64,000 nucleotides of DNA from Escherichia coli (GTDB lineage: Bacteria; Pseudomonadota; Gammaproteobacteria; Enterobacterales; Enterobacteriaceae), in assembly GCF_030013595.1 (NCBI RefSeq), contig NZ_CP122768.1; one strand, 5' to 3'. A program made the translations under genes and the position numbers. Each line of letters begins with the position of its first letter. Position 1 is the stretch's first letter. The notes below the pieces were generated by a model. That model worked only from the letters and a program-made list of their open reading frames with translations. It was not told where the DNA came from and did not search any database. This document shows positions 10,649 to 64,000 of the stretch, piece by piece.

Positions 10649-13093
10649 TTACACCTTTTCAACCTGAACAAGGTTTGTATGTGACGGATTCCCCTTAGCG
10701 AGAGGAGACGGACGTTGAGTGGTCAGTACATTGATACAACCGCCCTTATCGACACGTTTTGCATCCGGGTCATACCAGGCACCTTCACCCAGTGCGACCA
10801 CACCCGGCATCATTCGTGGCGTCACTTTCGCCTCAATATGAACCTCACCACGATCGTTAAAGATCCTGACTTTATCGCCGTTGTTGATACCGCGTTTTTG
10901 CGCATCAAGCGGGTTGATCCACATTTCCTGACGGCAAGCCGCTTTCAGCACATCAACGTTGCCGTAAGTTGAGTGAACGCGAGATTTATAGTGGAAACCC
11001 GTAAGCTGCAGCGGATATTGTTTGTTCAGCGGATCCTGATAACTTTCAAAGCCCGGCGTATAGATCGGCAGTGGATCGATCACATCGCCTTCTGGCAATT
11101 CCCAAGTCGCGGCAATGTCAGCCAGCGCCTGCGAATAAATCTCAATTTTACCCGATGGCGTGGTCAGTGGATTTGCCTGAGGATCTTCACGGAAAGCTTT
11201 ATAAGCAACGTGGTGCCCTTGTGGGTCGCGCTTTTTAAAGATCCCCTGCTTGCGGAACTCTTCAAACGTTGGCAGTTCAGGAATCGCTTCCCGCGACTGG
11301 GCATACAGATGCCGCATCCACTCTTCCTGTGTACGGCCTTCAGTAAACTGTTGCTCAACGCCAAGACGTTTTGCCAGTTCGCTGGTCATTTCATAGATGG
11401 TCTTACATTCAAAGCGCGGTTTAATCACCTGATCGTTGAAAATCACGTAAGACATATTCCCGCAGGATGCATCCAGTGCAAAGTCCATCTGTTCGGAAGC
11501 GGTGCAGTCAGGCAGCAGGATGTCAGCATATTTCGCTGATGAGGTCATGTGGCAGTCGATAACCACAATCAGCTCGCACTTCTTATCATCCTGAAGGATT
11601 TCATGGGTACGGTTGATTTCAGAATGCTGGTTAATCAGGCAGTTACCGGCATAGTTCCAGATCATTTTGATCGGCACATCCAGCTTATCTTTCCCGCGCA
11701 CACCATCACGCAGCGCTGTCATTTCCGGGCCACGTTCAATGGCATCGGTCCACATAAACATCGAAATGCTGGTCTGGATCGGGTTTTCGAGGGTCGGCAT
11801 ACGGACAAACGGTAAGCTGTATGAACCTTCACGCGCGCCGCTGTTGCCTCCGTTAATACCAACGTTACCGGTCAAAATCGCCAGCATCGAGATAGCACGG
11901 GTTGCGATTTCACCGTTAGCGTGACGCTGCGGGCCCCATCCCTGGCTGATAAACGCCGGTTTGGTACTACCGATTTCACGAGCCAGTTTGATGATTTTGT
12001 CTGCCGGAACACCGGTGATTTGCGAGGCCCATTCCGGCGTTTTAGCCACGCCATCTGGCCCTTCACCCAGAATATAAGCTTTATAGTGACCATTTTTCGG
12101 CGCACTGGCTGGCAGTGTTTTCTCGTCGTAGCCAACGCAATATTTATCGAGGAATGCCTGATCCACCAGGTTTTCGGTGATCATGACATACGCCAGACCG
12201 TTAACCAGTGCGGCATCTGTTCCCGGACGAATAGGGATCCACTCATCTTCGCGCCCGGCACCGGTGTCGGTATAGCGCGGATCGATGATGATCATGCGAG
12301 CATTAGATTTCTGGCGCGCCTGTTCAAGATAGTAAGTCACCCCACCGCCACTCATTCGCGTTTCGCCAGGGTTATTACCAAACAGCACTACCAGTTTACT
12401 GTTTTCGATATCCGACGGGCTGTTACCATCTGCCCAGCCGCCGTAGGTATAGTTCAAACCTTCCGCAATTTGCGCGGAAGAGTAGTCACCGTAATGGTTC
12501 AGATAACCGCCGCAGCAGTTCATCAGGCGAGCGACCAGGGTATTTCCCGGCGGCCAGGAGCGGGTCATGGTGCCGCCCAGCGTACCGGTACCATAGTTCA
12601 GATAGATAGACTCGTTGCCGTACTCTTTGATCAGGCGCTGCATATTGGTCGCGATGATGTCGTAGGCTTCTTCCCAGCTAATGCGCTCGAATTTGCCTTC
12701 ACCGCGCGCCCCGACTCGTTTCATCGGATATTTCAGGCGGTCCGGATTGTAGACACGGCGACGCATGGAACGACCACGCAGACAGGCGCGCACCTGGTGC
12801 AGGCCGTCATAGTTGTCATCGCCAGTATTATCCGTTTCAACATATTTGATTTCACCGTCCACGACGTGCATACGTAGCGGGCAGCGACTACCACAGTTAA
12901 CTGTACAGGCGCTCCAGATAACCTTTTCGTCTGATTTTGTTGGAATGGCGCTATCGACAGCGTGCGCAATCCGACTAAAAGGTAATGTTAATGCGCTGCT
13001 GGCCATTGCCAGGCCGCCGATCGCTGTCGTTTTTACCAAACCACGGCGACTCACCTCAGCAGCCAATACCGCATCAGGGATTTTCGTTTTCAT
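10649..13093 (-). CDS. dmsA: DMSO reductase catalytic subunit (molybdopterin), Tat signal
   Basis: 814 aa, twin-arginine motif SRRGLVK in N-terminus, molybdopterin oxidoreductase sequence. Confidence 0.9.
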   Translation of the reverse strand: MKTKIPDAVLAAEVSRRGLVKTTAIGGLAMASSALTLPFSRIAHAVDSAIPTKSDEKVIWSACTVNCGSRCPLRMHVVDGEIKYVETDNTGDDNYDGLHQVRACLRGRSMRRRVYNPDRLKYPMKRVGARGEGKFERISWEEAYDIIATNMQRLIKEYGNESIYLNYGTGTLGGTMTRSWPPGNTLVARLMNCCGGYLNHYGDYSSAQIAEGLNYTYGGWADGNSPSDIENSKLVVLFGNNPGETRMSGGGVTYYLEQARQKSNARMIIIDPRYTDTGAGREDEWIPIRPGTDAALVNGLAYVMITENLVDQAFLDKYCVGYDEKTLPASAPKNGHYKAYILGEGPDGVAKTPEWASQITGVPADKIIKLAREIGSTKPAFISQGWGPQRHANGEIATRAISMLAILTGNVGINGGNSGAREGSYSLPFVRMPTLENPIQTSISMFMWTDAIERGPEMTALRDGVRGKDKLDVPIKMIWNYAGNCLINQHSEINRTHEILQDDKKCELIVVIDCHMTSSAKYADILLPDCTASEQMDFALDASCGNMSYVIFNDQVIKPRFECKTIYEMTSELAKRLGVEQQFTEGRTQEEWMRHLYAQSREAIPELPTFEEFRKQGIFKKRDPQGHHVAYKAFREDPQANPLTTPSGKIEIYSQALADIAATWELPEGDVIDPLPIYTPGFESYQDPLNKQYPLQLTGFHYKSRVHSTYGNVDVLKAACRQEMWINPLDAQKRGINNGDKVRIFNDRGEVHIEAKVTPRMMPGVVALGEGAWYDPDAKRVDKGGCINVLTTQRPSPLAKGNPSHTNLVQVEKV

Positions 13094-13331: not shown

Positions 13332-14645
<1,314 letters not shown>

Positions 14646-20986: not shown

Positions 20987-21481
20987 TTAGCGCGTCTTAA
21001 TAACCAGACGATTACTCTGCTTGACTTCTTCCATAACAACGTATGTCCGTGTGTCATTGACGCCAGGCAGACGCAGCAGGGTTTCCCCCAGCAACTTACG
21101 GTAAGCTGACATATCCGGCACGCGTGTTTTCAACAGGTAGTCGAAATCACCAGATACTAAATGACACTCCTGAATTTCTTCAAGTTTTTGTACAGCGGTA
21201 TTGAATTGTTCAAACACATCCGGTGCGCCACGATTCAGAGTAATCTCAACGAATACCAGAAGTGATGCATCCAGATAATGGGGGTTCAGCAGCGCCGTAT
21301 AGCCCTGAATAAACCCTTGTCTTTCCAGCCGACGCACACGCTCAAGGCACGGCGTTGGGGAAAGTCCCACACGTTTAGAAAGCTCGACGTTAGAAATACG
21401 CCCATCCTTTTGCAACTCATTAAGAATGTTACGATCGATACGGTCGAGATCTTTGCCAGGGCGCTTCTTGCTATCTACCAT
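20987..21481 (-). CDS. lrp: Leucine-responsive regulatory protein
   Basis: MVDSKKRPGKDLDRIDRNILNELQKDGRISNVELSKRVGLSPTPCLERVRRLERQG..., 164 aa. Confidence 0.95.
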   Translation of the reverse strand: MVDSKKRPGKDLDRIDRNILNELQKDGRISNVELSKRVGLSPTPCLERVRRLERQGFIQGYTALLNPHYLDASLLVFVEITLNRGAPDVFEQFNTAVQKLEEIQECHLVSGDFDYLLKTRVPDMSAYRKLLGETLLRLPGVNDTRTYVVMEEVKQSNRLVIKTR

Positions 21482-21908
21482 TATTATTGTCTCTCTGTAT
21501 TCCTTCCCTACTCCTGTCTGACCCTGAAACATCACTGTTCAGAGTCGCTACCCGTCACGATAGACCGAAATCATGAAGATTCACGGCGCGCAATGCCTGG
21601 GTCTACGGTGAGAAGACCGTTGCCTTGTGGCTGCTATCGACATCACGAATGGCGTCTGTCCACGCCATACGTAGATTTCACTAGCACGGTAAACATGGTA
21701 TTTACATGCATGGTTATGCGCATATAAGAATACTGTTTTTTTTCTTCCTCGAATGTTTTCGCAAAACACCAGGGGATTGTCAAAGCAAAACATCGATTTT
21801 TAGTACAACATGCCAGATATTCATTACCAGGGGCGTTTATTCATCATTTAATCGGCTTATAAAGCGGGAAATTTAAGTAGCAGAGGTGATAATGACGGGA
21901 GAATTTGA

Positions 21909-22991
<1,083 letters not shown>

Positions 22992-23113
22992 TTTTACAAA
23001 TCAGTAACAAAAGTAAAGAAGGCGACACCATGCGACTATGGGTCGCCTTTATTTTTTCCTCGTTGTAACATTGCTCTGCAAATAATTCTGATAACTCACC
23101 TGCTAAGCGTGCA

Positions 23114-24880
23114 ATGAATAAATCCCGTCAAAAAGAGTTAACCCGCTGGTTAAAACAGCAAAGCGTCATCTCCCAACGTTGGCTGAATATTTCTCGTCTG
23201 CTGGGCTTTGTGAGCGGCATATTGATCATTGCCCAGGCCTGGTTCATGGCGCGAATTCTGCAACATATGATTATGGAGAATATTCCCCGTGAAGCCCTGC
23301 TGCTTCCCTTTACGTTACTGGTTCTGACCTTTGTACTGCGCGCATGGGTGGTCTGGTTACGCGAACGGGTGGGTTATCACGCCGGGCAGCATATCCGCTT
23401 TGCCATCCGCCGTCAGGTTCTCGACCGTCTGCAACAAGCAGGGCCAGCGTGGATTCAGGGTAAACCGGCGGGGAGCTGGGCGACGCTGGTACTCGAGCAA
23501 ATTGACGATATGCATGATTACTATGCACGCTACCTGCCGCAAATGGCGCTGGCAGTGTCGGTGCCGTTGCTGATTGTGGTGGCTATCTTCCCCTCTAACT
23601 GGGCTGCGGCGCTCATTCTGCTGGGCACTGCTCCGTTAATTCCGTTATTTATGGCGCTGGTTGGAATGGGGGCTGCCGATGCTAACCGACGTAACTTTCT
23701 CGCTCTTGCTCGCTTAAGTGGGCATTTTCTCGATCGCCTGCGCGGCATGGAAACATTGCGTATTTTTGGTCGTGGTGAAGCTGAAATTGAAAGTATTCGT
23801 TCTGCTTCGGAAGATTTCCGCCAACGGACAATGGAAGTGCTACGGCTGGCGTTTTTATCCTCCGGCATTCTCGAATTTTTTACCTCGCTGTCAATTGCTC
23901 TGGTGGCGGTCTACTTTGGTTTTTCCTATCTCGGCGAGCTGGATTTTGGTCACTATGATACTGGCGTGACGCTGGCTGCGGGTTTTCTGGCCCTGATCCT
24001 TGCGCCGGAGTTTTTCCAGCCATTACGCGATCTCGGTACGTTTTATCATGCTAAAGCCCAGGCTGTTGGTGCAGCTGACAGTCTGAAAACGTTTATGGAA
24101 ACCCCGCTTGCCCATCCGCAGCGTGGTGAGGCGGAATTAGCATCGACCGATCCGGTGACCATTGAAGCCGAGGAGCTGTTTATTACATCACCAGAAGGTA
24201 AAACGCTGGCCGGACCGCTGAACTTTACTTTGCCAGCAGGCCAACGTGCAGTGTTGGTTGGTCGCAGCGGTTCAGGTAAAAGCTCACTGCTGAACGCGCT
24301 TTCTGGTTTTCTCTCATATCAGGGATCGCTACGAATCAACGGGATAGAATTACGCGATTTATCACCAGAATCATGGCGTAAACATCTCTCCTGGGTTGGG
24401 CAAAACCCACAATTACCGGCAGCAACACTACGGGATAACGTACTACTGGCACGACCTGATGCCAACGAACACGAGTTACAAGCAGCACTGGATAACGCTT
24501 GGGTCAGTGAGTTTCTACCGCTCCTGCCACAAGGCGTTGATACGCCTGTTGGTGACCAGGCTGCCCGCCTTTCCGTGGGGCAGGCGCAGCGCGTGGCGGT
24601 GGCCCGAGCATTACTGAATCCCTGTTCGCTATTACTGTTGGATGAACCCGCTGCCAGCCTTGATGCTCACAGTGAACAGCGCGTAATGGAGGCGCTTAAT
24701 GCCGCCTCTCTGCGCCAGACAACGTTAATGGTCACCCACCAGTTAGAAGATCTTGCTGACTGGGATGTCATTTGGGTAATGCAGGATGGTCAGATTATTG
24801 AGCAAGGACGTTACGCGGAATTAAGTGTGGCTGGTGGCCCATTCGCCACATTACTGGCCCATCGTCAGGAGGAGATTTAA
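23114..24880 (+). CDS. cydD: Cysteine/glutathione ABC exporter subunit CydD
   Basis: 588 aa, TMD plus NBD with Walker A GRSGSGKSSL. Confidence 0.9.
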   Translation: MNKSRQKELTRWLKQQSVISQRWLNISRLLGFVSGILIIAQAWFMARILQHMIMENIPREALLLPFTLLVLTFVLRAWVVWLRERVGYHAGQHIRFAIRRQVLDRLQQAGPAWIQGKPAGSWATLVLEQIDDMHDYYARYLPQMALAVSVPLLIVVAIFPSNWAAALILLGTAPLIPLFMALVGMGAADANRRNFLALARLSGHFLDRLRGMETLRIFGRGEAEIESIRSASEDFRQRTMEVLRLAFLSSGILEFFTSLSIALVAVYFGFSYLGELDFGHYDTGVTLAAGFLALILAPEFFQPLRDLGTFYHAKAQAVGAADSLKTFMETPLAHPQRGEAELASTDPVTIEAEELFITSPEGKTLAGPLNFTLPAGQRAVLVGRSGSGKSSLLNALSGFLSYQGSLRINGIELRDLSPESWRKHLSWVGQNPQLPAATLRDNVLLARPDANEHELQAALDNAWVSEFLPLLPQGVDTPVGDQAARLSVGQAQRVAVARALLNPCSLLLLDEPAASLDAHSEQRVMEALNAASLRQTTLMVTHQLEDLADWDVIWVMQDGQIIEQGRYAELSVAGGPFATLLAHRQEEI

Positions 24881-26602
24881 ATGCGCGCTTTGCTACCCTA
24901 TCTGGCACTGTATAAACGTCATAAATGGATGTTAAGTCTTGGTATTGCGCTGGCAATTGTCACACTGCTCGCCAGTATCGGTCTGTTGACACTTTCCGGC
25001 TGGTTCCTCTCCGCCTCAGCGGTAGCGGGGGTTGCCGGACTGTATAGCTTCAACTATATGCTACCCGCTGCGGGCGTGCGTGGCGCAGCAATCACCCGTA
25101 CTGCCGGGCGCTATTTTGAACGTCTGGTAAGTCACGACGCGACTTTCCGCGTGTTGCAGCATCTGCGCATTTACACCTTCAGCAAATTGCTGCCCCTATC
25201 CCCTGCCGGACTGGCGCGCTATCGTCAGGGCGAATTGCTCAACCGCGTGGTGGCGGATGTTGATACGCTCGATCATCTTTACCTGCGCGTTATCTCGCCG
25301 CTGGTGGGCGCTTTTGTGGTGATTATGGTGGTGACAATCGGGTTAAGTTTCCTTGATTTCACCCTCGCCTTTACGCTGGGCGGCATTATGTTACTGACGC
25401 TTTTCCTGATGCCACCGCTGTTTTATCGTGCGGGAAAAAGCACCGGGCAAAATCTGACTCATCTTCGCGGGCAGTATCGCCAACAACTGACGGCCTGGCT
25501 GCAAGGGCAAGCTGAGCTGACCATTTTTGGTGCCAGCGATCGTTATCGCACGCAGTTAGAGAATACCGAAATTCAGTGGCTGGAAGCGCAACGACGTCAA
25601 TCTGAACTCACCGCATTGTCGCAAGCGATAATGCTGCTCATTGGCGCGTTAGCGGTGATCCTGATGCTGTGGATGGCGTCTGGCGGCGTTGGCGGCAATG
25701 CTCAACCCGGCGCGTTAATTGCCCTGTTTGTCTTCTGCGCGTTAGCCGCGTTTGAAGCACTGGCACCAGTAACGGGTGCATTTCAGCATCTGGGGCAAGT
25801 CATTGCCTCTGCCGTACGGATCACTGACTTAACGGATCAAAAACCGGAGGTCACCTTCCCTGATACCCAAACTCGTGTTGTCGATCGCGTTTCGCTGACG
25901 TTACGGGATGTTCAGTTCACTTATCCGGAGCAATCCCAACAGGCACTTAAAGGGATTTCTCTTCAGGTAAACGCCGGAGAACATATAGCGATTCTCGGGC
26001 GAACCGGATGCGGCAAATCAACACTGTTACAACTGCTGACCCGCGCATGGGACCCGCAACAGGGCGAGATTTTGCTTAACGATAGCCCCATAGCCAGCCT
26101 GAATGAAGCGACTCTACGACAGACCATCAGCGTTGTGCCACAGCGAGTGCATCTGTTTAGCGCCACGCTGCGTGATAATCTGTTACTCGCCTCACCTGGC
26201 AGTAGTGATGAGGCTCTGGCGGAGATCTTACGTCGCGTTGGTCTGGAGAAGCTGCTCGAGGATGCAGGTCTCAACAGTTGGTTAGGTGAAGGCGGACGCC
26301 AGCTCTCCGGTGGTGAACTGCGCCGTCTGGCTATCGCCCGTGCGCTGTTACATGATGCGCCTCTGGTATTGCTGGATGAACCTACAGAAGGCTTAGATGC
26401 CACAACCGAAAGTCAGATCCTTGAATTGCTTGCAGAAATGATGCATGAGAAAACGGTGTTAATGGTCACCCATCGACTTCGCGGACTCTCTCGTTTCCAA
26501 CAAATAATAGTGATGGACAACGGGCAAATTATTGAGCAAGGTACTCACGCAGAACTGCTTGCCAGACAGGGGCGTTATTACCAGTTTAAGCAGGGTTTGT
26601 AA
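24881..26602 (+). CDS. cydC: Cysteine/glutathione ABC exporter subunit CydC
   Basis: 573 aa, Walker A GRTGCGKSTL, ABC signature LSGGE; start abuts cydD stop. Confidence 0.9.
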   Translation: MRALLPYLALYKRHKWMLSLGIALAIVTLLASIGLLTLSGWFLSASAVAGVAGLYSFNYMLPAAGVRGAAITRTAGRYFERLVSHDATFRVLQHLRIYTFSKLLPLSPAGLARYRQGELLNRVVADVDTLDHLYLRVISPLVGAFVVIMVVTIGLSFLDFTLAFTLGGIMLLTLFLMPPLFYRAGKSTGQNLTHLRGQYRQQLTAWLQGQAELTIFGASDRYRTQLENTEIQWLEAQRRQSELTALSQAIMLLIGALAVILMLWMASGGVGGNAQPGALIALFVFCALAAFEALAPVTGAFQHLGQVIASAVRITDLTDQKPEVTFPDTQTRVVDRVSLTLRDVQFTYPEQSQQALKGISLQVNAGEHIAILGRTGCGKSTLLQLLTRAWDPQQGEILLNDSPIASLNEATLRQTISVVPQRVHLFSATLRDNLLLASPGSSDEALAEILRRVGLEKLLEDAGLNSWLGEGGRQLSGGELRRLAIARALLHDAPLVLLDEPTEGLDATTESQILELLAEMMHEKTVLMVTHRLRGLSRFQQIIVMDNGQIIEQGTHAELLARQGRYYQFKQGL

Positions 26603-28104: not shown

Positions 28105-28192
28105 GGTGAGGTGTCCGAGTGGCTGAAGGAGCACGCCTGGAAAGTGTGTATACGGCAACGTATCGGGGGTTCGAATCCCCCCCTCACCGCCA
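28105..28192 (+). tRNA. serW: tRNA-Ser (anticodon GGA), long variable arm, CCA encoded
   Basis: GGTGAGGTGTCCGAGTGGCTGAAGGAGCACGCCTGGAAAGTG...GGGGTTCGAATCCCCCCCTCACCGCCA; acceptor stem pairs, anticodon loop CTGGAAA. Confidence 0.9.
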
Positions 28193-44820: not shown

Positions 44821-45471
44821 ATGAATGCACGAAAAGCGGTACTGGCAGACAATCCGGAATTGATCCTGCGTGTGCTACAGCTGAGATTTGACGAGTCACT
44901 GTCGTACCCGCGCATTTCTGCGCAGACCGGTGTCAGCAAAACCGCCATTTTTTCTCTGGTGAGGCGATTTCACCAGGTATTCACTGACTGGCCTCTTTCC
45001 GGTGAATATTCCTGCGGGCAACTGGCCCGGGCTCTTTTCCCGGGGCGATACCCTTCAGCCCCGACCGTGACTCAGCCTGTGAAAGCAGAGAAACCCCGCC
45101 GGAACCGATTTTCACCGGAGTTTAAATGGAGACTGGTTCAGCAAACTCTTTTACCCGGTGCCTGTGTCGCACAAATAGCTCGAGAGAATGGAATTAACGA
45201 TAACCTGCTCTTTAACTGGCGGCATCTCTGGCGTAACGGTGGCCTGCAACCGCCCGGCGAACATGAAACATCGCTACTTCCCGTGACGTTAACTCCGGAG
45301 CCGGATAATAAAATCCCGGCACCAGTGCAGATACCTGAACAGATAAATACACTGCCAGACAGTCTGTGCTGCGAGCTGGTTCTGCCGGCCGGAACTCTCA
45401 GGCTGAAAGGTGAACTGACACCGGCGTTATTACAGACACTTATCCGCGAAATGAAAGGGAGCAGCCACTGA
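44821..45471 (+). CDS. IS66-family OrfA-like protein with ~90-aa N-terminal extension
   Basis: C-terminal two thirds (...RRNRFSPEFKWRLVQQTLLPGACVAQIARENGINDNLLFNWR...) resembles IS66 OrfA; N-terminal part does not. Confidence 0.55.
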   Translation: MNARKAVLADNPELILRVLQLRFDESLSYPRISAQTGVSKTAIFSLVRRFHQVFTDWPLSGEYSCGQLARALFPGRYPSAPTVTQPVKAEKPRRNRFSPEFKWRLVQQTLLPGACVAQIARENGINDNLLFNWRHLWRNGGLQPPGEHETSLLPVTLTPEPDNKIPAPVQIPEQINTLPDSLCCELVLPAGTLRLKGELTPALLQTLIREMKGSSH

Positions 45472-45818
45472 TGATATCTCTCCCTGCCGGTTCGCGTATC
45501 TGGCTGGTTGCCGGTATCACCGATATGCGAAATGGCTTTAACGGCCTGGCCTCAAAAGTTCAGAACGTCCTGAAGGATGACCCGTTCTCCGGGCATCTGT
45601 TCATCTTCCGCGGACGCCGGGGTGACCAGATAAAAGTGCTGTGGGCTGACAGTGACGGACTGTGCCTCTTCACCAAACGCCTGGAGCGGGGCCGCTTCGT
45701 CTGGCCGGTCACCCGCGATGGAAAGGTTCACCTTACTCCGGCTCAGTTGTCCATGCTTCTCGAAGGCATCGACTGGAAGCACCCGAAACGAACGGAACGC
45801 GCTGGCATCCGCATATAA
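45471..45818 (+). CDS. IS66-family accessory protein TnpB (Orf2)
   Basis: MISLPAGSRIWLVAGITDMRNGFNGLASKVQNVLKDDPFSGHLFIFRGRRGDQIKVLWAD... typical IS66 Orf2. Confidence 0.8.
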   Translation: MISLPAGSRIWLVAGITDMRNGFNGLASKVQNVLKDDPFSGHLFIFRGRRGDQIKVLWADSDGLCLFTKRLERGRFVWPVTRDGKVHLTPAQLSMLLEGIDWKHPKRTERAGIRI

Positions 45819-45837
45819 CCCGTTGTAAAGTGAGGAT

Positions 45838-47409
45838 ATGGACACCTCACTTGCTCATGAGAATGCCCGCCTGCGGGCACTGTTGCAGACGCAACAGGAC
45901 ACCATCCGCCAGATGGCGAAATACAACCGCCTGCTCTCACAGCGGGTGGCGGCTTATGCTTCCGAAATCAACCGGCTGAAGGCGCTGGTTGCGAAACTGC
46001 AGCGCATGCAGTTCGGTAAAAGCTCAGAAAAACTTCGCGCTAAAACCGAACGGCAGATACAGGAAGCCCAGGAGCGAATCAGCGCACTTCAGGAAGAAAT
46101 GGCGGAAACGCTGGATGAGCAATATGACCCGGTACTGCCATCCGCCCTGCGCCAGTCTTCAGCCCGTAAGCCGTTACCGGCCTCACTTCCCCGTGAAACC
46201 CGGGTCATCCGGCCGGAAGAGGAATGCTGCCCGGCCTGTGGTGGTGACCTCAGTCCTCTGGGGTGTGATGTGTCAGAGCAACTGGAGCTTATCAGCAGCG
46301 CCTTTAAGGTTATCGAAACACAACGTCCGAAACTGGCCTGTTGCCGGTGCGACCATATCGTGCAGGCAACAGTACCTTCAAAACCCATTGCACGCAGTTA
46401 TGCCGGAGCGGGGCTTCTGGCCCATGTTGTTACCGGGAAATATGCAGACCATCTGCCGTTATACCGCCAGTCAGAAATATACCGTCGCCAGGGCGTGGAG
46501 CTGAGCCGCGCCACGCTGGGGCGCTGGACAGGTGCCGTTGCTGAACTGCTGGAGCCGCTGTATGACGTCCTGCGCCAGTATGTGCTGATGCCCGGTAAAG
46601 TCCATGCGGATGATATCCCCGTTCCGGTCCAGGAGCCGGGCAGTGGTAAAACAAGAACTGCCCGGCTGTGGGTCTATGTCCGTGATGACCGTAACGCCGG
46701 TTCACAGATGCCCCCGGCGGTCTGGTTCGCGTACAGCCCGGACCGGAAAGGTATCCATCCACAGAATCACCTGGCCGGTTACAGCGGTGTGCTTCAGGCA
46801 GATGCTTACGGTGGTTACCGGGCGTTATACGAATCCGGCAGAATAACGGAAGCCGCGTGTATGGCCCATGCCCGGAGAAAAATCCACGATGTGCATGCAA
46901 GAGTGCCAACCGACATCACCACGGAAGCCCTGCAGCGTATCGGTGAACTGTATGTCATCGAGGCAGAAGTCCGGGGATGTTCAGCAGAACAGCGTCTGGC
47001 AGCAAGAAAAGCCAGAGCGGCTCCACTGATGCAGTCACTGTATGACTGGATACAGGAACAGATGAAAACACTGTCGCGTCACTCGGATACGGCAAAAGCG
47101 TTCGCATACCTGCTGAAACAGTGGGAGGCCCTGAACGTGTACTGCAGTAATGGCTGGGTGGAAATCGACAACAACATCGCAGAGAACGCCTTACGGGGAG
47201 TGGCCGTAGGCCGGAAAAACTGGCTCTTCGCGGGTTCCGACAGCGGTGGCGAACATGCGGCGGTGTTGTACTCGCTGATCGGCACATGCCGTCTGAACAA
47301 TGTGGAACCAGAAAAATGGCTGCGTTACGTCATTGAGCATATCCAGGATTGGCCGGCAAACCGGGTACGCGATCTGTTGCCCTGGAAAGTTGATCTGACC
47401 TCTCAGTAA
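45838..47409 (+). CDS. IS66-family transposase TnpC
   Basis: 523 aa with leucine-zipper N-terminus, CxxC...CxxC zinc-finger-like motif (CPACGG...CCRC) and DDE-like core. Confidence 0.85.
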
Positions 47410-55667: not shown

Positions 55668-56801
55668 TCACTGCTTTTTACAACCATTCCCCCAGGTAAA
55701 ATGCTGCTCCTCCGGTGATGGCTGTGTCAGAAACTGCCATCCCGGAATAGCCACGCTGACCGCCAGCAATGCCGCACAGACACCAGCCACAAACGGTTTC
55801 AGAAACGTGGGCGGGGATTTCTGAAGGGAGGGTGACTGCTCCGCCTGCACTTTCCCCTTGCGATTATCAAGGCTCAGTGCATCCAGACGCACCGCGCCAT
55901 TTGCCGCAAGCAGCCCTTCCCGGTTATCCACGCTTCCCGGCAGACTCAGCGAAAAATCCCCTGTTCCCGTCTGAATCAGACTGCCTTTACGATTTGACAG
56001 GCTTTGTGCCGATATCTGCAGTGTGTCGGCATTTATCGTACCGCCATTACTGCTGAACTGCCCGGCAGTCCGGGCGGAAAGCGTATCGGCACTCAGTTGC
56101 GCATTCTGTGTAGACAGATTTCCACTGGTTGCATTCAGCTCAGTATGTTGTCCCTGTATCCGGCTGTTACCTAAATCCAGCCCCTGCTCAATGTCCCGTA
56201 AATCCAGCAGAGAACCTTCGTGTGCCGGGAATGAGGAATACAACTGAATATAGTCATCACTGTCCGGTGTCAGACGCACATGTCGCACAACACCGGGAAT
56301 AATAACCAGCCGGAGGATACCGCTTTTTAAATCCTGCGAAGGTGCCAGAACACGGGTGGTGACATAACCATGATCGACCAGACGGTTCTGCAATGTACTC
56401 ATCAGCAGATTAATTCCTTTCGCCCCCAGGCAATGCCCGACCGCCCCGTTGGCGATTTTTTGTAAAGGCAGCCAGTGTGGTAACGCATCAGCCCCCTTCA
56501 GTTCCGTCTGTTTAATCTGAAAACAGGGCGTTTCAACAGGAAAATTAATCTTATGGGCAAAAGAGCCAGGTGCAGAAAGGCGAACATCAGGGGCTGAAGG
56601 CGTCAGTTGTTGCTCAAGGGCTTCCTGACGCTGCTGCTGAATGATAAATGCTTCATCTCCGCTACGCCGGACATCCGCTGCCTGAAGAGATAAAGGCGAT
56701 AATAAAGCAGACATCAGTGTCAGTGACAGCAAGGACGGACAGCGCCGGAATAAGCTTTGTTCCTCAGTCCTCTCGTTCCTGCAACATAATTTTCCAGTCA
56801 A
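55668..56801 (-). pseudogene. Probable remnant of a two-partner-secretion locus: TpsB-like (ShlB/FhaC/CdiB) signal peptide and POTRA region fused to hemagglutinin-repeat-like sequence
   Basis: N-terminus ...[26 protein letters not shown]...[11 protein letters not shown]... then Ser/Asn/Gly-rich repeats ...[10 protein letters not shown]...; too short for an intact TpsB barrel. Confidence 0.35.
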
Positions 56802-57388: not shown

Positions 57389-57580
57389 ATGTCAGAAGAT
57401 GTTCCATTACCGAAAGTCAATCAGCGATACAAAGACGATCATGGTGCGCTTGTCACCCTGACCAGTGTTGAGGAAACCCGGGTGGTGTTTATGCAGGACG
57501 GCTATCCGCATCCCTGCATGCGACCGATGTACAACTTTCTGGGAAAATTCAAACCCGAACCCCGGGAAGAAACAGAATAA
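57389..57580 (+). CDS. Small hypothetical protein
   Basis: 63-aa ORF in intergenic position; weak. Confidence 0.25.
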   Translation: MSEDVPLPKVNQRYKDDHGALVTLTSVEETRVVFMQDGYPHPCMRPMYNFLGKFKPEPREETE

Positions 57581-57961: not shown

Positions 57962-59183
57962 TCAGAGATGGTATGCCGGTACTTTGCGGGTTGTTCCCGT
58001 CAGGTTATCGTGCACCTCCACGGTCGTGGTCACCACCGGCATTCCGGCCTTTCTCAGCCTCAGAACATCAGCCGCAATACGCTGACTGCCAAACCAGAAC
58101 AGGCCGTCCAGTGCAGTCACCAGTAAACCCGCCTCCAGTGCATACTTCAGCCGTTCACGGGGCGCTTTCACTTCCCGGGCAACCTGCTGATATGGCAATG
58201 ATGTGTTTTCATTCCCAACCACGCGACGAATACGGTGAGACAGATGATACCGGTATGTATCCGGCACACCAGAAAGGCTGGCCTTCAGGCTGTACACGCA
58301 GCCAAACCGTTTATCGTTAAACACCTCATTTTTCTGGCTGATGCCCCATTCTTCACGCAGCGCGGCAATCAATTGCGGTGTACGGGTAAGCAGCAAGCGA
58401 AAAGGCAGTTCAAAACTGGTGACGTAATCCACATTCAGCAGTGCAATACGCAACCGTTCTTCTGGCCCGGCCTCTGTCTGCCGGCACTCCTCCAGAACAT
58501 CCTGCCACTGCCGGCGAAGACGGGGGGATTCGTTCCGTTCTGTAAAACAGTATTTATCCGCCAGATAGTCAATTCGTGTACGCATACTGAAAGGAATTCC
58601 GTATAAAGATTCAGCAGACAAAACTTTATCAGCCAGTAAAAATTAACGGAAGCATTGATATTCCTCCCGACAATCACCGGATGATTGTTGCAATAACCTG
58701 CGACATAAAGGACTGAACAGCCGTTTTTAACGCCACGTATTGCCCTGATGAACCAGGCCGGGCCACCCGAAAACATCTTTCCACCCGGCATTGTCCGCCA
58801 GCACTTATCACCGACCAGGTCTGTTGCAGTAAATCCACCAGTTGCGCACATTCTTCATCAGCCATGACGCCGACTCGCGGATGGCAAATACTCGTCTGGC
58901 TGAGCAGCAACAGACATCGTATCTGTGCTCCTTCATGTTGTTCCCGCAACCAGCGTAATACCACCGGCGCTGATGGGCTGACCGTGTGATTATGCTCCGT
59001 AATACGTTCGTGTACCCGTCGGTGAAAGGAACTACAAAATGTCTGAATCTGTTGACCATAGATTCCTTCTGCCGAATAGAGCGTGAAGTGAAATGCCAAC
59101 AGATTTGGCCAGTGGTCCACCGCCTGCTGAACAAAACGCCGGATTTCCCCCGGCTCTGAAATTAAGGCTTCGGTTATTTGCAC
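57962..59183 (-). pseudogene. Split YagK/YfjJ-like (inovirus Gp2-type) gene, two consecutive ORFs 58674..59183 and 57962..58621
   Basis: Two adjacent same-strand ORFs whose combined length matches an integrase-proximal prophage gene family; interruption near 58620..58675. Confidence 0.4.
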
Positions 59184-59628
59184 GAAATGTTCCTTTTCAA
59201 CCCCTGTTGAATTTTGTCAAGCCGGTGCAGACACAGTAAAGCGCGCATCAACACCTGAAAGGTACGATACAAACACAAGTTACAAACAATAAGAACGGAA
59301 GGACAATTAATCAGTGAGGAATAATAACTAAATTAACCAAAAGAATGTTACTGACAATACTACCAATACTTAAATAGCAATATATTAATTAATGTAAGAA
59401 CAGATGCCCGGTAGGACATATACACAATACATCCACAAACACACTCTTTTCATTAAATCAATCACCTGATTAAACCATGAAAGTGTGATGTAAGTCAAAA
59501 TTACTGATACTATCAATTGATAATGATTATCTCTATCATTATCGTGAAATTCGAGAATGAAAGGAGAAGTAGTCATTATAAGCCTTTTATAAATCGTCAT
59601 CATCATAGTAAAGTAGAACACTTTTTAT

Positions 59629-60099
59629 ATGAGTTACTATATGAAAATATACTGGACAAGAAAACGTATTCCTGAACTTTCAGCACTTCCACCTTCATTA
59701 AGAAAGAAAAATTTTACTGACGCATATAATGCAGCATCTTCTCATATCGAATACTGGATAGGTGCTGGCGTCTCATTTATCTCGATGATGATTTTATCCA
59801 GAGTATATGACTTTCTTTTACCCGCCCAAGATACTTTCCCGGGTGATATCATCAGAAGTTTATGTGTTGTGTGTCCATCCATATTAATCTGGTTTCAGTT
59901 TTCGGTATATGTCATGAGGAAATATTACAGACATATTCTGGTGCGAGGAAAAGAAACCGAAACCATTTCAGAAAGGTTGATACGTGAGGCTGATACACGA
60001 GAATATGAACTATGGCGTCCGGTCCGTCGCTTTTTCTCCATTGTTTTCCTCATTGTTCTATTAGGTTGCATTCATTCACTGATAACAACTATAAAATAA
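59629..60099 (+). CDS. Hypothetical membrane protein
   Basis: 156 aa with 2-3 hydrophobic segments; AT-rich low-confidence region. Confidence 0.3.
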   Translation: MSYYMKIYWTRKRIPELSALPPSLRKKNFTDAYNAASSHIEYWIGAGVSFISMMILSRVYDFLLPAQDTFPGDIIRSLCVVCPSILIWFQFSVYVMRKYYRHILVRGKETETISERLIREADTREYELWRPVRRFFSIVFLIVLLGCIHSLITTIK

Positions 60100-60336
60100 A
60101 AGTTATGGCTGTTCTGATACAGGAAAATAAACGTTCATTCTATGGTTACCTCTTCCTGTTATATAGAAGAATTTTAAACGACAAGTAAGGGAATATAAAT
60201 GAAAATAACAAAAAATAAAAATGCAACTATAAAAAACAGTCATCAGTCGGCTGCTTTTCAATGTTTACCTTATCATTTTCTGGTAATGCTGCCAACTTAC
60301 TGATTTAGTGTATGATGGTGATTTTAAGGTGCTTGC

Positions 60337-60612
60337 GTGGCTTCCATTTCCATCAGATGTCCTTCCTGCTCCGCTACTGAAGGCGTGGTGCGTAACGGCA
60401 AAAGCACTGCCGGACATCAGCGCTATCTCTGCTCTCATTGCCGTAAAACATGGCAACTACAGTTCACTTACACCGCCTCTCAGCCCGGTAAGCACCAGAA
60501 AATCATTGATATGGCCATGAATGGCGTCGGATGTCGCGCCAGTGCACGCATTATGGGCGTTGGCCTCAACACGGTTTTACGTCACTTAAAAAACTCAGGC
60601 CGCAGTCGGTAA
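60337..60612 (+). CDS. insA: IS1 InsA
   Basis: [91 protein letters not shown]. Confidence 0.9.
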
Positions 60613-61034
60613 CCTCGCGCATACAACCGGGCAGTGATGTGATTGTCTGCGCTGAAATGGACGAACAGTGGGGCTACGTCGGTGCTAAATCACGTCAGCG
60701 CTGGCTGTTTTACGCGTATGACAGGATACGGAGGACGGTTGTGGCGCACGTCTTCGGTGAACGCACTCTGGCCACACTGGAGCGTCTTCTGAGCCTGCTG
60801 TCGGCCTTTGAGGTCGTGGTATGGATGACGGATGGCTGGCCGCTGTATGAATCACGCCTGAAGGGAAAGCTGCACGTTATCAGCAAGCGTTACACTCAGC
60901 GCATTGAGCGACATAATCTGAATCTGAGACAACATCTGGCAAGGCTGGGACGGAAGTCACTGTCGTTCTCAAAATCGGTGGAGCTGCATGACAAGGTCAT
61001 CGGGCATTATCTGAACATAAAACACTATCAGTAA
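60531..61034 (+). CDS. insB: IS1 InsB (expressed as InsAB' by frameshift)
   Basis: ...[54 protein letters not shown]... Confidence 0.85.
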
Positions 61035-61035
61035 G

Positions 61036-61311
61036 TTGGAGTCATTACCTGAGAATAATACCTCCTGGGTAAGTGAGCAGATACTTTCAGCGCCTCCGAA
61101 AGATGTAAATATTCGACTTGGAGTCGGTTCTTTAGAAGGTACAACCGTCTCACATGTTCAGCGATTGCATCATTCGTTAATCGCAGCTGGTTTGGAAAGT
61201 AACCTCACTGTCTATACCGGTGGTCACGATTATGCCTGGTGGCGCGGAGCAATTATTGATGAATTAGCAAATTATAATTGCAGGAAGGTATCAAATAATA
61301 ACTCTGTGTAA
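61036..61311 (+). pseudogene. Possible C-terminal fragment of an esterase-family gene truncated by IS1
   Basis: ORF begins inside IS1 right end; tail ...LTVYTGGHDYAWWRGAIIDELAN resembles enterochelin-esterase-type C-termini (weak, from memory). Confidence 0.25.
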
Positions 61312-61452
61312 AATATCGTTTTATCGTCAGATAACTCTTTCTGCAATATTATTATGGGAGACTATCTCATTTATTTAGTGATGTCCTTCATTTATGTGAT
61401 GAAGGACATTATATTACTCATAACATTTCTCGTTGAAAATTTCAGCAATACG

Positions 61453-62577
61453 CTACAATTGTTTCCCGTTGTTTTTTAATTTTCTCATCAAAACCTCTGC
61501 AATCTCTGCAGGACTGGGTTGTTCAGCCATTTCAGCGGCTACCTGATCTGAACAGAAGCGTAGTGAATCATCATAAAGAAGGCGATTTACCAAATCACTG
61601 GTCAGTCCATGCTTGTCCGGAATAATCCCACACCCACGCTTCGCAACAATTTCTGCATTAACAGAGCGATCTGCACCTTCGCCAAACACAATCTGTGGTA
61701 TTCCACTATACAGCGCTGTCAGGGTATTACCTGCGCCACCGTGATGAATAAATCCATCAGCTCCATTAAGGAATACACCCATAGGTATCCAGTCAACCAG
61801 ACGTACATTTGATGGTAGTTTTCGTAAACCAGTACGAGCATTTATTGCAAGTTGCAAAATGATATCAGCATCAACTTCATTTGCAGAATCCATAACCCAT
61901 GAAATCAGCTCCAGACCATCAACCATTGGTTTTACAGTGCCAAGGCTGATAAGTAAACGTTTCCGATCAGAATCCCTGTCCCACCATGTTTCCTTTACAG
62001 CACCTCCGTTATAAGGAATATATCTCATTGAGATAACCGGTTCTCCAGCATTTTTAAGAATGCTCATACTTGGGGGAGCAACATCAATCCATGCTAAATC
62101 ACATAGTGGACCGCTGACTCCATGCCGCCTGTAAGCATTGCTTAAAGAACGGTTTAACATCTGAATATGGGCAGATGTATGCGCGAATCCAACAGCCAGC
62201 ATCACTGAAGGAATTCTATATTTAGCAGCAACCAATGGGCCTGCCGGATCAAGAGGGGGATAGACTATTAAATCTGGCCTCCATTTTCCTGCAAAATCGA
62301 TGAGGTTATCTGCCATTTCATCGCTAAAAAAAGAGAAATGACCAATAATATTACTTTTTTTCCTCAACTCTTCCTGATGGCGATATCCAGCCTCTGAATC
62401 TAAACCTGGAACTGCATCAAAAACAACCAGTCCAGCTTCTGCTGCTTTATTCGCGAATTTGCCAGCGCTACTAATTACTACATCATGTCCAATTACACGA
62501 AAGGCCTGAGCCAGAGAAATCAATGGGTATAACAAACCGTACAGCGGTGGGCCAATAAAAAGAATACGTTTTCGCAT
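61453..62577 (-). CDS. GT-B glycosyltransferase of the IroB/MchA (enterobactin C-glucosyltransferase) family
   Basis: MRKRILFIGPPLYGLLYPLISLAQAFRVIGHDVVISSAGKFANKAAEAGLVVFDAVPGLDSEAGYRH... closely resembles remembered IroB; C-terminal HHGGAGNT UDP-sugar motif. Confidence 0.65.
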   Translation of the reverse strand: MRKRILFIGPPLYGLLYPLISLAQAFRVIGHDVVISSAGKFANKAAEAGLVVFDAVPGLDSEAGYRHQEELRKKSNIIGHFSFFSDEMADNLIDFAGKWRPDLIVYPPLDPAGPLVAAKYRIPSVMLAVGFAHTSAHIQMLNRSLSNAYRRHGVSGPLCDLAWIDVAPPSMSILKNAGEPVISMRYIPYNGGAVKETWWDRDSDRKRLLISLGTVKPMVDGLELISWVMDSANEVDADIILQLAINARTGLRKLPSNVRLVDWIPMGVFLNGADGFIHHGGAGNTLTALYSGIPQIVFGEGADRSVNAEIVAKRGCGIIPDKHGLTSDLVNRLLYDDSLRFCSDQVAAEMAEQPSPAEIAEVLMRKLKNNGKQL

Positions 62578-63306
62578 TAAAAAAGTCCGTCTTCTGCTTA
62601 CCTGTTTATTTTTCTATCTCTAAGAAAACATAATTAATATTATTTTTATGTGAGCTTATGCACAAAAATAACCAAGTATATTATCTTCTGGTAGAGATTC
62701 AGGATACAGTTTGTAGGAGCTTTCTTTTTTGAACAATGATTTGCAGGACAGTTATGCTAAACTAGCGGAATCAGTATCACAACAATAAATGACTGATCAT
62801 ACCTGAAATTTGAATTAACAGGCATCATGAATGTCAATAGTCTAAGCGGTGACTACTTATATCGCTTGCATAAATACTAAACACTGACTAGAAAAGTATT
62901 GGATAACCCCGTCACTAAAAGTAACGCTTCGGTTATTTGCTCGGAATGTATTAACGCCAAGATTGTTAGCCGTTACGCCTTATATCACTGGCGCTGACAA
63001 ATGTTTCTTTTCTAATTTACTGAACCGGCGCAGACACGCAGGAAAGCACGCCGGCACCGGTGTAATGCCAGTTCTAATCAATAAGAATGGAATGACGAAT
63101 CAGTCAGGAAGGGATAACAACCCGCTGCTGAACGGAAGGTATCAGCAGGAAGATGAACGGGAATATCGCCAGCACCAAGGGCAGGGCCGGGTTCCACAAT
63201 ACCAGCGCTGGCATTTTGCACATTGCCAGCGTACCGGCATTACAACACGTTTCATGCTGCTGCCCCCCAGGATTCCTCGATTCGTTGCTACATCCACTGC
63301 TCTACT

Positions 63307-63504
63307 TCACTTCCACTGCTCCACTTCACTTTTGTACCAGCGGCTGCTGCGCCCCAGTTTGATGGGTTTAGGGAAATGGCCTTCACTGATCAACTTGTAA
63401 AACCATTTGTCGGTCATACCGGTGAAACTGGTGATATAGTTCATGTCGATCAGGGAATTATCGGCACGCAGAAATACGCTGTCGTGGCTTGTTGTAGTCA
63501 ACAT
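63307..63504 (-). CDS. AlpA-family prophage transcriptional regulator (MerR-like HTH)
   Basis: ...DMNYITSFTGMTDKWFYKLISEGHFPKPIKLGRSSRWYKSEVEQW... Confidence 0.6.
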   Translation of the reverse strand: MLTTTSHDSVFLRADNSLIDMNYITSFTGMTDKWFYKLISEGHFPKPIKLGRSSRWYKSEVEQWK

Positions 63505-64000
63505 GGTCAGAATGTCCTGTGAGATTTATGAAGATTGTGCGAATGCGGGAAATCTACTGAGCTGTGCTTTCAGAACTGGCCTGTTACGGGATACCAGGGA
63601 TTACCGGCGGGGTAACGGGCTTCCGGATCATACACACCACGATTATCGCGGACAAAATCACTGAACGCCCATATCACCTCTTTAAGTATGTCTTCGCAGT
63701 CCGGTAAATGACGATCCAGCGCCACATCCCGGGTGGTACAGCTTTGATGCGCCCGGTGACACAAAGCCCGGATTGTTCCAGACATCCTGAATCAAACGCC
63801 CCAGATTAGGGGCGTCGAAATATGCCTCTCTGACCATTATATTCCGGCGTATAGGTAGCAGGTCTGAAGTGACAATGCGTCACCTGACGTTAAAAGTCAC
63901 CCAAGATGACCCCAGTGGGGGCAACAAGTATAAAACCGTTTTTTGATTAAGTGGTCGGATATGAAAAGGGGAAGGTTTATGTGAAAAATACCTGTGTTTT

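Follow-up and report, generated by a model that had tools for sequence, protein, structure and literature searches.

A decayed small microcin H47/M island in Escherichia coli, its interior very probably replaced by IS1, with mchA and both attachment repeats left behind

The island remnant and its boundaries

Positions 59148-63115 of the 64-kb stretch of Escherichia coli DNA analysed here (the window) very probably represent a decayed small mobile genomic island of the type that encodes the antibacterial peptides microcin H47/M, with its interior replaced by the insertion sequence IS1. The surviving parts are mcmT, a stub of mcmM, IS1 itself, the tail of an esterase gene, an intact mchA and both attachment (att) repeats. 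The initial annotation had drawn the locus at 60282-62960. The elements it named are present, but its extent was too small, since both att repeats, the mcmM stub and mcmT also survive, and the full unit is therefore 59148-63115.

The boundaries are marked by two imperfect att-like direct repeats, which are ~74% identical. The left one (59148-59323) lies on the mcmM side and the right one (62907-63115), identified by repeat comparison and from an empty-site genome, on the mchA side. In that empty-site genome (L007) a single copy aligns to both repeats, and empty sites also exist in other genomes, as a class with 7% coverage. The repeats are alike in length and identity to the published attL and attR of the H47 island (148 and 144 bp, 76% identical; PMC3191183), to which we liken them by description. 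The pattern of an H47-type island, with long (~145-bp) imperfect direct repeats of ~76% identity and an empty hybrid attC elsewhere, is present at this locus. As both attachment repeats are left, the remnant is potentially excisable. An Rfam scan of 56-64 kb of the window returned zero matches.

As part of the same explanation, and with the same high confidence, we place the remnant inside a larger island of the TAI/OI-43/48/SpLE1 type (tellurite/adhesin) at tRNA-Ser (serW). In O157:H7 relatives iha, which encodes a catecholate receptor/adhesin, is found ~5.7 kb past mchA. It was considered as a partner receptor gene and rejected, since it falls outside the att repeats and does not adjoin intact islands.

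IS1 and the missing island interior

A complete, 768-bp IS1 (IS1F-type, the name also given by PGAP) occupies 60282-61049 on the + strand. It has every feature expected of an IS1 (~768 bp, terminal inverted repeats, insA and insB', and an A6C frameshift site), with Pfam and NCBIfam matches. InsA is at 60337-60612 (Pfam Zn_ribbon_InsA and HTH_Tnp_IS1), InsB is at 60531-61034 (Pfam DDE_Tnp_IS1, 1.3e-74), and the A6C motif TTAAAAAAC is located at 60586. The flanking 9 bp are TCATTTTCT on the left and TGAGAATAA on the right, which differ at 7/9 positions; the element is without a target duplication, as the initial annotation had remarked. A missing duplication is expected from a deletion or recombination product, and so does not contradict the identity of the element.

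On its left side IS1 cuts mcmM, leaving an 83-nt, frameshifted 5' stub (mcmM', 60199-60281, + strand) of this CPBP-family microcin M gene. PGAP calls the stub a CPBP fragment in identical genomes, and strain IBS28 has a full-length counterpart under the name 'Microcin M activity protein McmM'. By blastn, window positions 58720-60281 match 11049-12614 of the intact IBS28 island (L004), with collinearity stopping at 60281, and 61045-63578 match 22990-25509. Exactly 10,380 bp of the IBS28 island is absent, with IS1 in its place. Lost relative to IBS28 are the 3' part of mcmM, mcmA, mchF, mchE, mchD, mchC, mchB, mchI, mchS3 and the first 1,014 nt of mchS1/mcmK. In the IBS28 island and in L003, this segment is annotated with mcmA, mchF, HlyD, an acyltransferase, mchB, mchI, mchS3 and a 1,275-nt esterase gene.

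In the mechanism we propose, and consider very probable, IS1 took over 10.4 kb of the island interior, either through adjacent deletion or because two IS1 copies recombined. What it removed were the genes for microcin precursors and immunity (mcmA, mchB, mchI, mchS3), for maturation (mchC, mchD) and for export (mchE, mchF). Also lost were the greater part of mcmM and, of the esterase gene mchS1/mcmK, the 5' 80%. The missing partner genes and the IS1-linked loss of a modification cluster, both claimed at the outset, are therefore accounted for by the 10,380-bp segment where IS1 now sits, although the cluster belonged to a microcin H47/M island and not to an iroA siderophore locus. Microcin production and export from the remnant are impossible by gene content, because the precursor, immunity, maturation (MchCD) and export (MchEF) genes that make up a functional siderophore-microcin system all fall within the deleted segment. 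This decay is ordinary gene-cluster erosion, and the literature has noted it before. Strain TUM1223 (H95) retains the left flank alone, ending at the same breakpoint, apparently through a further rearrangement.

The esterase fragment and the glycosyltransferase

To the right of IS1 lies the 3' fragment of mchS1/mcmK (61050-61311, + strand; 262 nt, the last ~86 codons), recognised by Pfam Esterase and NCBIfam models. The corresponding 91-aa open reading frame (61036-61311) has a TTG start inside the IS1 end, and true esterase homology begins at 61050. The fragment covers positions 167-250 of the 251 in the Pfam Esterase profile and 340-409 of the 418 in the NCBIfam enterochelin esterase model, and differs by one residue from the C-terminus of the 424-aa MchS1/McmK esterase of IBS28. 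The GQSLGG serine motif is within the deleted portion, leaving the fragment without its nucleophile serine; PGAP labels it a pseudogene, and it is non-functional.

Convergent with this fragment is an intact 374-aa open reading frame (61453-62577, - strand), corresponding to Z1190/Z1629 of EDL933. Its product has the GT-B/GT1 fold, with EryCIII-like N-terminal (PF21036, 9.9e-51) and C-terminal (PF06722, 5.2e-48) Pfam domains, and SnogD is its nearest solved relative (2e-61). The gene is 98-99.5% identical in nucleotides to the glycosyltransferase genes of intact microcin H47/M islands, and 68.5% (nucleotide) and 69% (amino acid) identical to iroB/IroB, with no IroB-specific NCBIfam match. It is convergent with the 3' end of mchS1 and beside the att repeat, as in L002-L004. 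Judged by sequence, it is the ortholog of the enterobactin C-glucosyltransferase gene mchA/mcmL of the microcin H47/M island. The initial annotation had described a GT-B glycosyltransferase of the IroB/MchA family next to a complete IS1 and a convergent esterase C-terminal fragment. This description stands and can now be narrowed to mchA/mcmL: the gene is not of an unrelated family and no intact partner genes adjoin it, the two points on which that annotation could have fallen.

Compared with the L003 intact-island copy, mchA carries one amino acid change (G110D) and two synonymous ones, and with three differences the divergence is too low for a dN/dS or selection estimate. Residue G110 is kept in 55/63 homologs, and position 110 is Q in SnogD and 9ke1, distant GT1 relatives with solved structures. 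The PDB copy searched held no structure of IroB, MchA or MceC. Inactivation by G110D is not demonstrable, and enterobactin C-glucosylation by the mchA product is a predicted activity. The gene stands without a dedicated exporter, esterases or receptor, G110D is lineage-specific, and in some lineages the gene is truncated.

The upstream region of mchA is shared with intact islands, at 97.6% identity over 61045-63413. A Fur box had been suggested in 62578-62960, and nothing convincing was found there. The best candidate is a weak 13/19 site at 62629-62647, ~50 nt ahead of the start of mchA, which is probably not meaningful. Fur-like sites of 13/19 occur 27 times in the window, and the upstream region is AT-rich. 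We reject this site as a Fur box of mchA, as it is not above the AT-rich background and the glycosyltransferase genes of microcin clusters are reportedly not Fur-regulated; Fur failed to bind a 58% box ahead of mceC (PMC6071977).

mcmT and its promoter region

At the far end of the remnant, an intact gene on the + strand (59629-60099; Z1193 of EDL933) encodes a 156-aa membrane protein that we assign to mcmT from its cluster name ('hypothetical protein Z1193'), its position and its hydrophobic segments. The protein is identical at 151/156 positions to the open reading frame at the matching position of the intact IBS28 island. The gene sits immediately before mcmM, an arrangement shared with intact and 83972-type islands, and so corresponds to McmT in size and in its place beside mcmM. 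The 156-aa McmT of Nissle 1917, which has three transmembrane segments, gives resistance to MccH47 and MccM, according to data from the Bravo-Vazquez thesis cited in a review (PMC6795089).

Overlapping Fur-box motifs are found at 59513-59545 (+ strand), ~85 nt upstream of mcmT. The 17/19 match at 59519-59537 is the best Fur-consensus match across the 64-kb window. The box overlaps a promoter-like TTGATA-17-TATCGT, and its sequence is identical in the intact IBS28 island. Binding of Fur here is predicted from the motif. In a promoter and terminator scan, promoter counts were not above the shuffled expectation. If the thesis findings for the homolog in Nissle carry over, mcmT, which keeps its Fur box, may still confer some resistance to siderophore-microcins.

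Distribution, origin and decay

Among 5,426 complete E. coli genomes, mchA occurs in 645 and a near-complete island in 156. The identical IS1 form with identical junctions is present in 500, which include O157:H7, O145, O103, O111 and pig ETEC, and a 41-mer carrying D110 in 501. D110 is fixed solely in the deleted form, the count of G110 genomes being derived by subtraction. Because the junctions and D110 recur in 500 and 501 genomes, a single origin of the remnant is most likely, followed by spread through STEC and ETEC lineages together with its host island.

Most of the ~500 genomes keep the 374-aa frame of mchA open. On 218 contigs a D110 version is N-truncated to 287 aa, a point deletion affects one of the EDL933 copies, and IS insertions are reported for O145:H28 strains (PMC9144400).

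The presence of mchA together with a McmT homolog beside it has already been remarked in O157:H7 in a 2019 review (PMC6795089). Our search for literature on mchA or mcmL together with O157 found the remark of Baquero (2019) alone, and the island paper of Azpiroz (2011) mentions neither O157 nor IS1 (PMC3191183). Published arrays show both genes to be expressed in EDL933. Z1190, labelled 'putative glucosyltransferase', and Z1629 reached a log2 value of 12.2 in stationary-phase wild type, the rpoS mutant gave 7.9 and 5.3, and Z1193 (mcmT) showed a 15-fold ratio (PMC2907692 and supplement).

Alternative explanations

The glycosyltransferase and the esterase fragment could be taken for leftovers of an iroA (iroBCDEN salmochelin) locus. 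The product is 69% identical to IroB, the fragment resembles IroD, and a genomics survey named the gene an 'iroB homolog' (PMC9144400). However, the nucleotide identity of 98-99.5% to mchA/mchS1 far exceeds that to iroB (68.5%) and iroD (69%), the convergent gene order, both flanks and the att repeats are those of the microcin island, and iroB, iroC and iroD are co-directional in iroA. Sequence identity and gene order rule this reading out, and we leave it practically no probability. That IS1 arrived passively, after an unrelated deletion had taken the cluster away, is also highly improbable. It has no specific support, and such an insertion would give a 9-bp direct duplication, yet the flanks differ at 7/9 positions and IS1 coincides exactly with both breakpoints relative to the intact island. 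A more serious contender, which we consider somewhat short of an even chance, is that two independent, directly oriented IS1 insertions in mcmM and mchS1 were followed by homologous recombination, rather than a one-step adjacent deletion. A single IS1 with unmatched flanks fits this route (but adjacent deletion leaves the same product), IS1 is plentiful in these genomes (a median of 11 places per genome), and strain NCCP 13894 has an extra IS1 in the region. Against it, none of the 60 sampled genome rows held an intermediate with IS1 at one breakpoint of an otherwise intact island, nor did the sampled rows include an IS1 with a target duplication inside such an island, which would show the order of events. 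Sequence alone does not separate the two routes.

Replacement of the island interior by IS1, by either route, leaves the question of what mchA now does. The only thing its product could still do is glucosylate enterobactin made by the cell itself. It has to be weighed whether the orphan gene is kept because EHEC/STEC glucosylate enterobactin to salmochelin-like siderophores that evade lipocalin-2, exported and re-imported via generic EntS/TolC and FepA, Cir, Fiu or the nearby Iha, with mcmT kept as cheater immunity against siderophore-microcins. Several observations agree with this: the open frame in most of the ~500 genomes, the high, RpoS-dependent expression in EDL933, the 97.6% identity of the upstream region to intact islands, and iha being 5.7 kb away in O157. 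Constitutive expression of microcin-cluster glycosyltransferases has also been argued to supply salmochelin-like molecules (PMC6071977), the window's best Fur box precedes mcmT, and the Nissle McmT reportedly gives microcin resistance. However, the carriers are without iroC, iroD, iroE and iroN, and on O157 chromosomes the glycosyltransferase query finds one place only, even in distant mode. In addition, G110D hits a residue that is glycine in 55/63 homologs, and the change is fixed in the deleted form alone. Several lineages have truncated or frameshifted copies, iha sits beyond the island and is not linked to it elsewhere, and our literature search found no report of salmochelin production by O157:H7. 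We therefore consider retention for this function unlikely. Slightly more doubtful still is the wider proposal that STEC, including O157:H7, would turn their own enterobactin into glucosylated, lipocalin-2-resistant siderophores without iroA through RpoS-induced mchA, and would retain a Fur-controlled mcmT that protects them, as orphan immunity, from the siderophore-microcins of competitors (Nissle 1917, for example). Our reading is that mchA now drifts as a leftover and is not being kept for a function, although a mostly open frame and strong expression in EDL933 are also what a maintained function would be expected to show.

Implications

The stranded mchA explains VFDB-style 'iroB homolog' calls in STEC without a salmochelin locus, O157:H7 and O145:H28 among them, and it is no evidence of salmochelin capacity. 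The remnant is a fully resolved case in which IS1 has wiped out the inside of a small mobile island but spared both attachment repeats. Its IS1 junctions and G110D together provide a marker, most likely of single origin, present in ~500 complete genomes, with which the TAI/OI-43/48-type island can be traced.

Comparison with known systems

The closest known relative is the microcin H47/M island of H47, CA46, CA58 and 042, with which the end genes are shared at 94-99% nucleotide identity (PMC3191183, PMC7472721). The published gene set comprises mchA/mcmL, mchS1/mcmK, mchS2-3, mchXIB, mchCDEF, mcmIA and mcmM (PMC3191183, PMC7472721). Common to both are the convergent mchA and mchS1, the flanking DNA and the long imperfect att repeats. 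Unlike that island, the remnant has IS1 in place of the 10.4-kb interior, lacks the precursor genes, mchI/mcmI, mchCD and mchEF, and carries G110D in mchA.

The truncated islands of Nissle 1917, CFT073 and ABU83972 and the remnant in UPEC 536 likewise show IS- or transposase-associated erosion inside a larger tRNA-Ser-associated island (PMC7472721, PMC6776366). In these strains it is the opposite end (mcmL/mchA and mcmK/mchS1) that is lost, and microcins are still made with the IroB of iroA. Here, by contrast, only mchA of the modification end and mcmT of the far end survive, and production is impossible.

IroB of iroBCDEN shares the GT1/GT-B family and the predicted enterobactin C-glucosylation with the mchA product (69% amino acid identity), and is able to replace McmL in Nissle (PMC6776366). 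It is not an ortholog, however, as it has another gene context, and iroB is Fur-regulated whereas the microcin-cluster glycosyltransferase genes reportedly are not. The gene in the window shows neither the co-directional iroC/iroD context nor the high IroB identity of an iroA locus.

Finally, Z1190/Z1629 and Z1193 of O-islands 43/48 (TAI, SpLE1) in O157:H7, tags confirmed in the supplement of PMC2907692, are the same genes as those in the window, which is 100% identical to many O157:H7 genomes over 4.2 kb. The window differs from O157:H7 in its non-O157 background, with the island at serW, and its first 28 kb consist of core genes that are 99.9% identical to those of pig isolates.

Identity of the glycosyltransferase

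The 374-aa open reading frame at 61453-62577 on the minus strand encodes glycosyltransferase domains of the EryCIII-like N and C types. When the IS-free segment 61050-62960 was searched in distant mode, the matches fell into two classes, iroB and iroD at 68.5-69% nucleotide identity, and sequences located in complete microcin H47/M islands at 98-99.5%. The initial annotation had called the enzyme IroB/MchA-like and the lost cluster a siderophore- or microcin-modification cluster; the microcin H47/M alternative is upheld, and an iroA siderophore locus is rejected on identity and gene order. The protein shares 69% of its residues with UTI89 IroB and differs from the copy in GPEC403-625 at one residue (D110 for G110), with two further synonymous sites. 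By position and near-identity the gene is mchA (= mcmL). Reviews present the products of mchA and mchS1 (= mcmK) as homologs of IroB and IroD, respectively, within the microcin system (PMC7472721).

Codon 110 of mchA lies at 62248-62250. The position is glycine in 55 of 63 IroB/MchA-like homologs, yet glutamine in the nearest solved relatives, so that G110D may either impair the predicted activity of MchA or leave it intact. An N-truncated 287-aa version carrying D110 is recorded on 218 contigs, and a comparative study reports point deletions and IS insertions in the 'iroB homolog', with one of the two copies in EDL933 among those affected (PMC9144400); decay of mchA is thus ongoing in some lineages. 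A Fur box had been proposed as a target for search in 62578-62960, upstream of mchA, where only a 13/19 Fur-like site was found. The glycosyltransferase genes of microcin clusters are not Fur-regulated according to the literature (PMC6071977).

Deletion of the island interior

ORF listing and domain scans bear out a complete IS1 of 768 bp at 60282-61049, with InsA (60337-60612), InsB (60531-61034), the A6C frameshift motif (60586) and terminal inverted repeats. Its 9-bp flanks, TCATTTTCT and TGAGAATAA, differ, and the target duplication is absent as had been remarked. In the intact islands of IBS28 and GPEC403-625 the glycosyltransferase gene converges on an esterase gene of 1,275 nt, which is followed by mchS3, mchI, mchB, a 1,551-nt gene, an acyltransferase gene, HlyD, mchF, mcmA and a CPBP-family gene, whose product is named 'Microcin M activity protein McmM' in UniRef. 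The mcmA-mchF gap of IBS28 (L004, the island locus of that strain, 13670-13924) probably holds an unannotated mcmI.

Using blastn, window 58720-60281 is collinear with L004 11049-12614, and window 61045-63578 with L004 22990-25509. In the junction alignments IS1 falls exactly between positions 12614 and 22995 of L004, and therefore 10,380 bp have been replaced by IS1. The presence of IS1 at both breakpoints, together with the missing duplication, identifies IS1 as the agent of the deletion. Either adjacent deletion or recombination of one IS1 copy with another could have been the route; the sequence fits both alike and cannot separate them. No intermediate, with IS1 at one breakpoint only, was seen among 60 rows spread over the survey. 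The interpretation of the initial annotation, an IS1-mediated cluster deletion, was essentially correct.

Both edges of IS1 hold truncated genes. On the left is a stub of the first 83 nt of mcmM (60199-60281), which is also frameshifted. On the right, the convergent esterase-like fragment noted earlier is a 91-aa ORF (61036-61311) whose TTG start lies within the IS1 end; its similarity is confined to the C-terminal ends of the Pfam Esterase profile (positions 167-250 of 251) and of the NCBIfam enterochelin esterase (340-409 of 418). Position and near-identity mark it as the tail of mchS1. The right flank starts 262 nt ahead of the esterase stop codon and the GQSLGG serine motif falls within the missing segment; the esterase is dead.

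mchA was found in 645 of 5,426 complete E. coli genomes, a near-complete island in 156 and the identical IS1-deleted form in 500, while the D110 allele was counted in 501 by a 41-mer which a central mismatch would not match. The near-equality of the last two counts, compared as totals, suggests that the deletion and D110 trace back together to a single ancestral event, after which the remnant spread along with its host island.

Boundaries and genomic setting

Two imperfect direct repeats of ~74% identity (59148-59323 and 62907-63115) enclose the whole remnant unit, and the single copy in an empty-site genome (strain 98194) aligns with both; genomes with an empty site make up a large class in the survey. 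A 4.2-kb stretch around the remnant is 100% identical in many E. coli O157:H7, O145, O103, O111 and pig ETEC chromosomes. In an O157:H7 genome the remnant is surrounded by the island for tellurite resistance and adherence (OI-43/48, SpLE1). The gene iha, for a catecholate siderophore receptor/adhesin, lies ~5.7 kb past the glycosyltransferase in O157:H7 strain 3384 (L001, the locus of that strain, 21076-23166), beyond the window end, and is followed by terZABCDE-type genes. It is set apart from the glucosyltransferase gene by IS debris and was rejected as part of the microcin-island unit because it lies outside the island repeats.

The host island starts at tRNA-Ser(GGA) (28105-28192), the junction with 28 kb of core genes (ftsK, dmsA, pflB, cydD) nearest to pig isolates; the host is therefore a non-O157 strain with the island at serW. 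The first part of the island, 28.1-33.8 kb, shares just 87-93% identity with the serX-linked copy of O157:H7 and thus represents a diverged serW-type copy. Elsewhere, 44821-47409 holds a complete IS66-family element (TnpA, TnpB and TnpC ORFs), of which strain 3384 retains only remnants, and the IS3-family insertion of that strain near window ~56840 is absent. The ORF at 55668-56801 (minus strand) has ShlB-type POTRA domains without the beta-barrel part and resembles a truncated two-partner-secretion transporter gene (PGAP in O157: 'POTRA domain-containing protein'), and 57389-57580 (plus strand) is a 63-aa DUF4222 ORF (Z1197/Z1636).

Expression and possible function

An intact ORF of 156 aa (59629-60099) is situated between the left repeat and the stub of mcmM and is 151/156 identical to the ORF in the same position of the intact island; its cluster bears the EDL933 name Z1193. 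According to a passage of the Baquero 2019 review, McmT, a 156-aa protein with three TM segments cloned from Nissle 1917, gives resistance to MccH47 and MccM (PMC6795089). About 85 nt upstream of this mcmT homolog, a 17/19 Fur-box match at 59519-59537 ranks first in all 64 kb of the window; it is overlapped by additional Fur hexamers and a promoter-like site within 59513-59545, a sequence identical in intact microcin islands. This predicted Fur box suggests iron control of a little-studied resistance gene.

Arrays of stationary-phase EDL933 gave log2 12.2 in the wild type for Z1190 ('putative glucosyltransferase') and for Z1629, its duplicate in OI-48, and 7.9 and 5.3, respectively, in an rpoS mutant, while Z1193 showed a 15-fold ratio (PMC2907692); both surviving genes are therefore transcribed. 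Synthesis of a stealth siderophore by mchA, alongside orphan immunity, would give the pair a function. If MchA is active, endogenous enterobactin would be its sole possible substrate for glucosylation. O157 chromosomes have a single place each for the glycosyltransferase query, so that iroB paralogs, and by implication the iroCDEN partners, are missing from the carriers. Microcin production or export from the remnant is impossible. With microcin production lost, the iroCDEN partners lacking and iha outside the unit, mchA is judged to be a drifting leftover, and the functional alternative, a stealth siderophore together with orphan immunity, is considered unlikely. The mcmT homolog may still confer some residual resistance to siderophore-microcins.

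Comparison with known islands

The repeats share the architecture of the published H47 island (148/144 bp, 76% identity), whose excision and integration have been demonstrated experimentally (PMC3191183). Other, independent decay states of this island include the 83972/Nissle type, without mchA and mchS1, that of SCU-308 (mcmT-mcmM-mcmA retained, with part of an ABC gene fused to the right flank), and that of TUM1223 (left flank alone, ending at the same IS1 breakpoint). The glycosyltransferase gene has been carried as a putative glucosyltransferase ever since the EDL933 genome, and a thesis and a review had previously remarked on its identity as mchA and on the neighbouring McmT homolog. What may be unpublished are the precise breakpoints, the survival of both att repeats and the link to G110D, yet these are details of a known thing; mobile elements are well documented to have eroded microcin islands in Nissle, CFT073 and 536.
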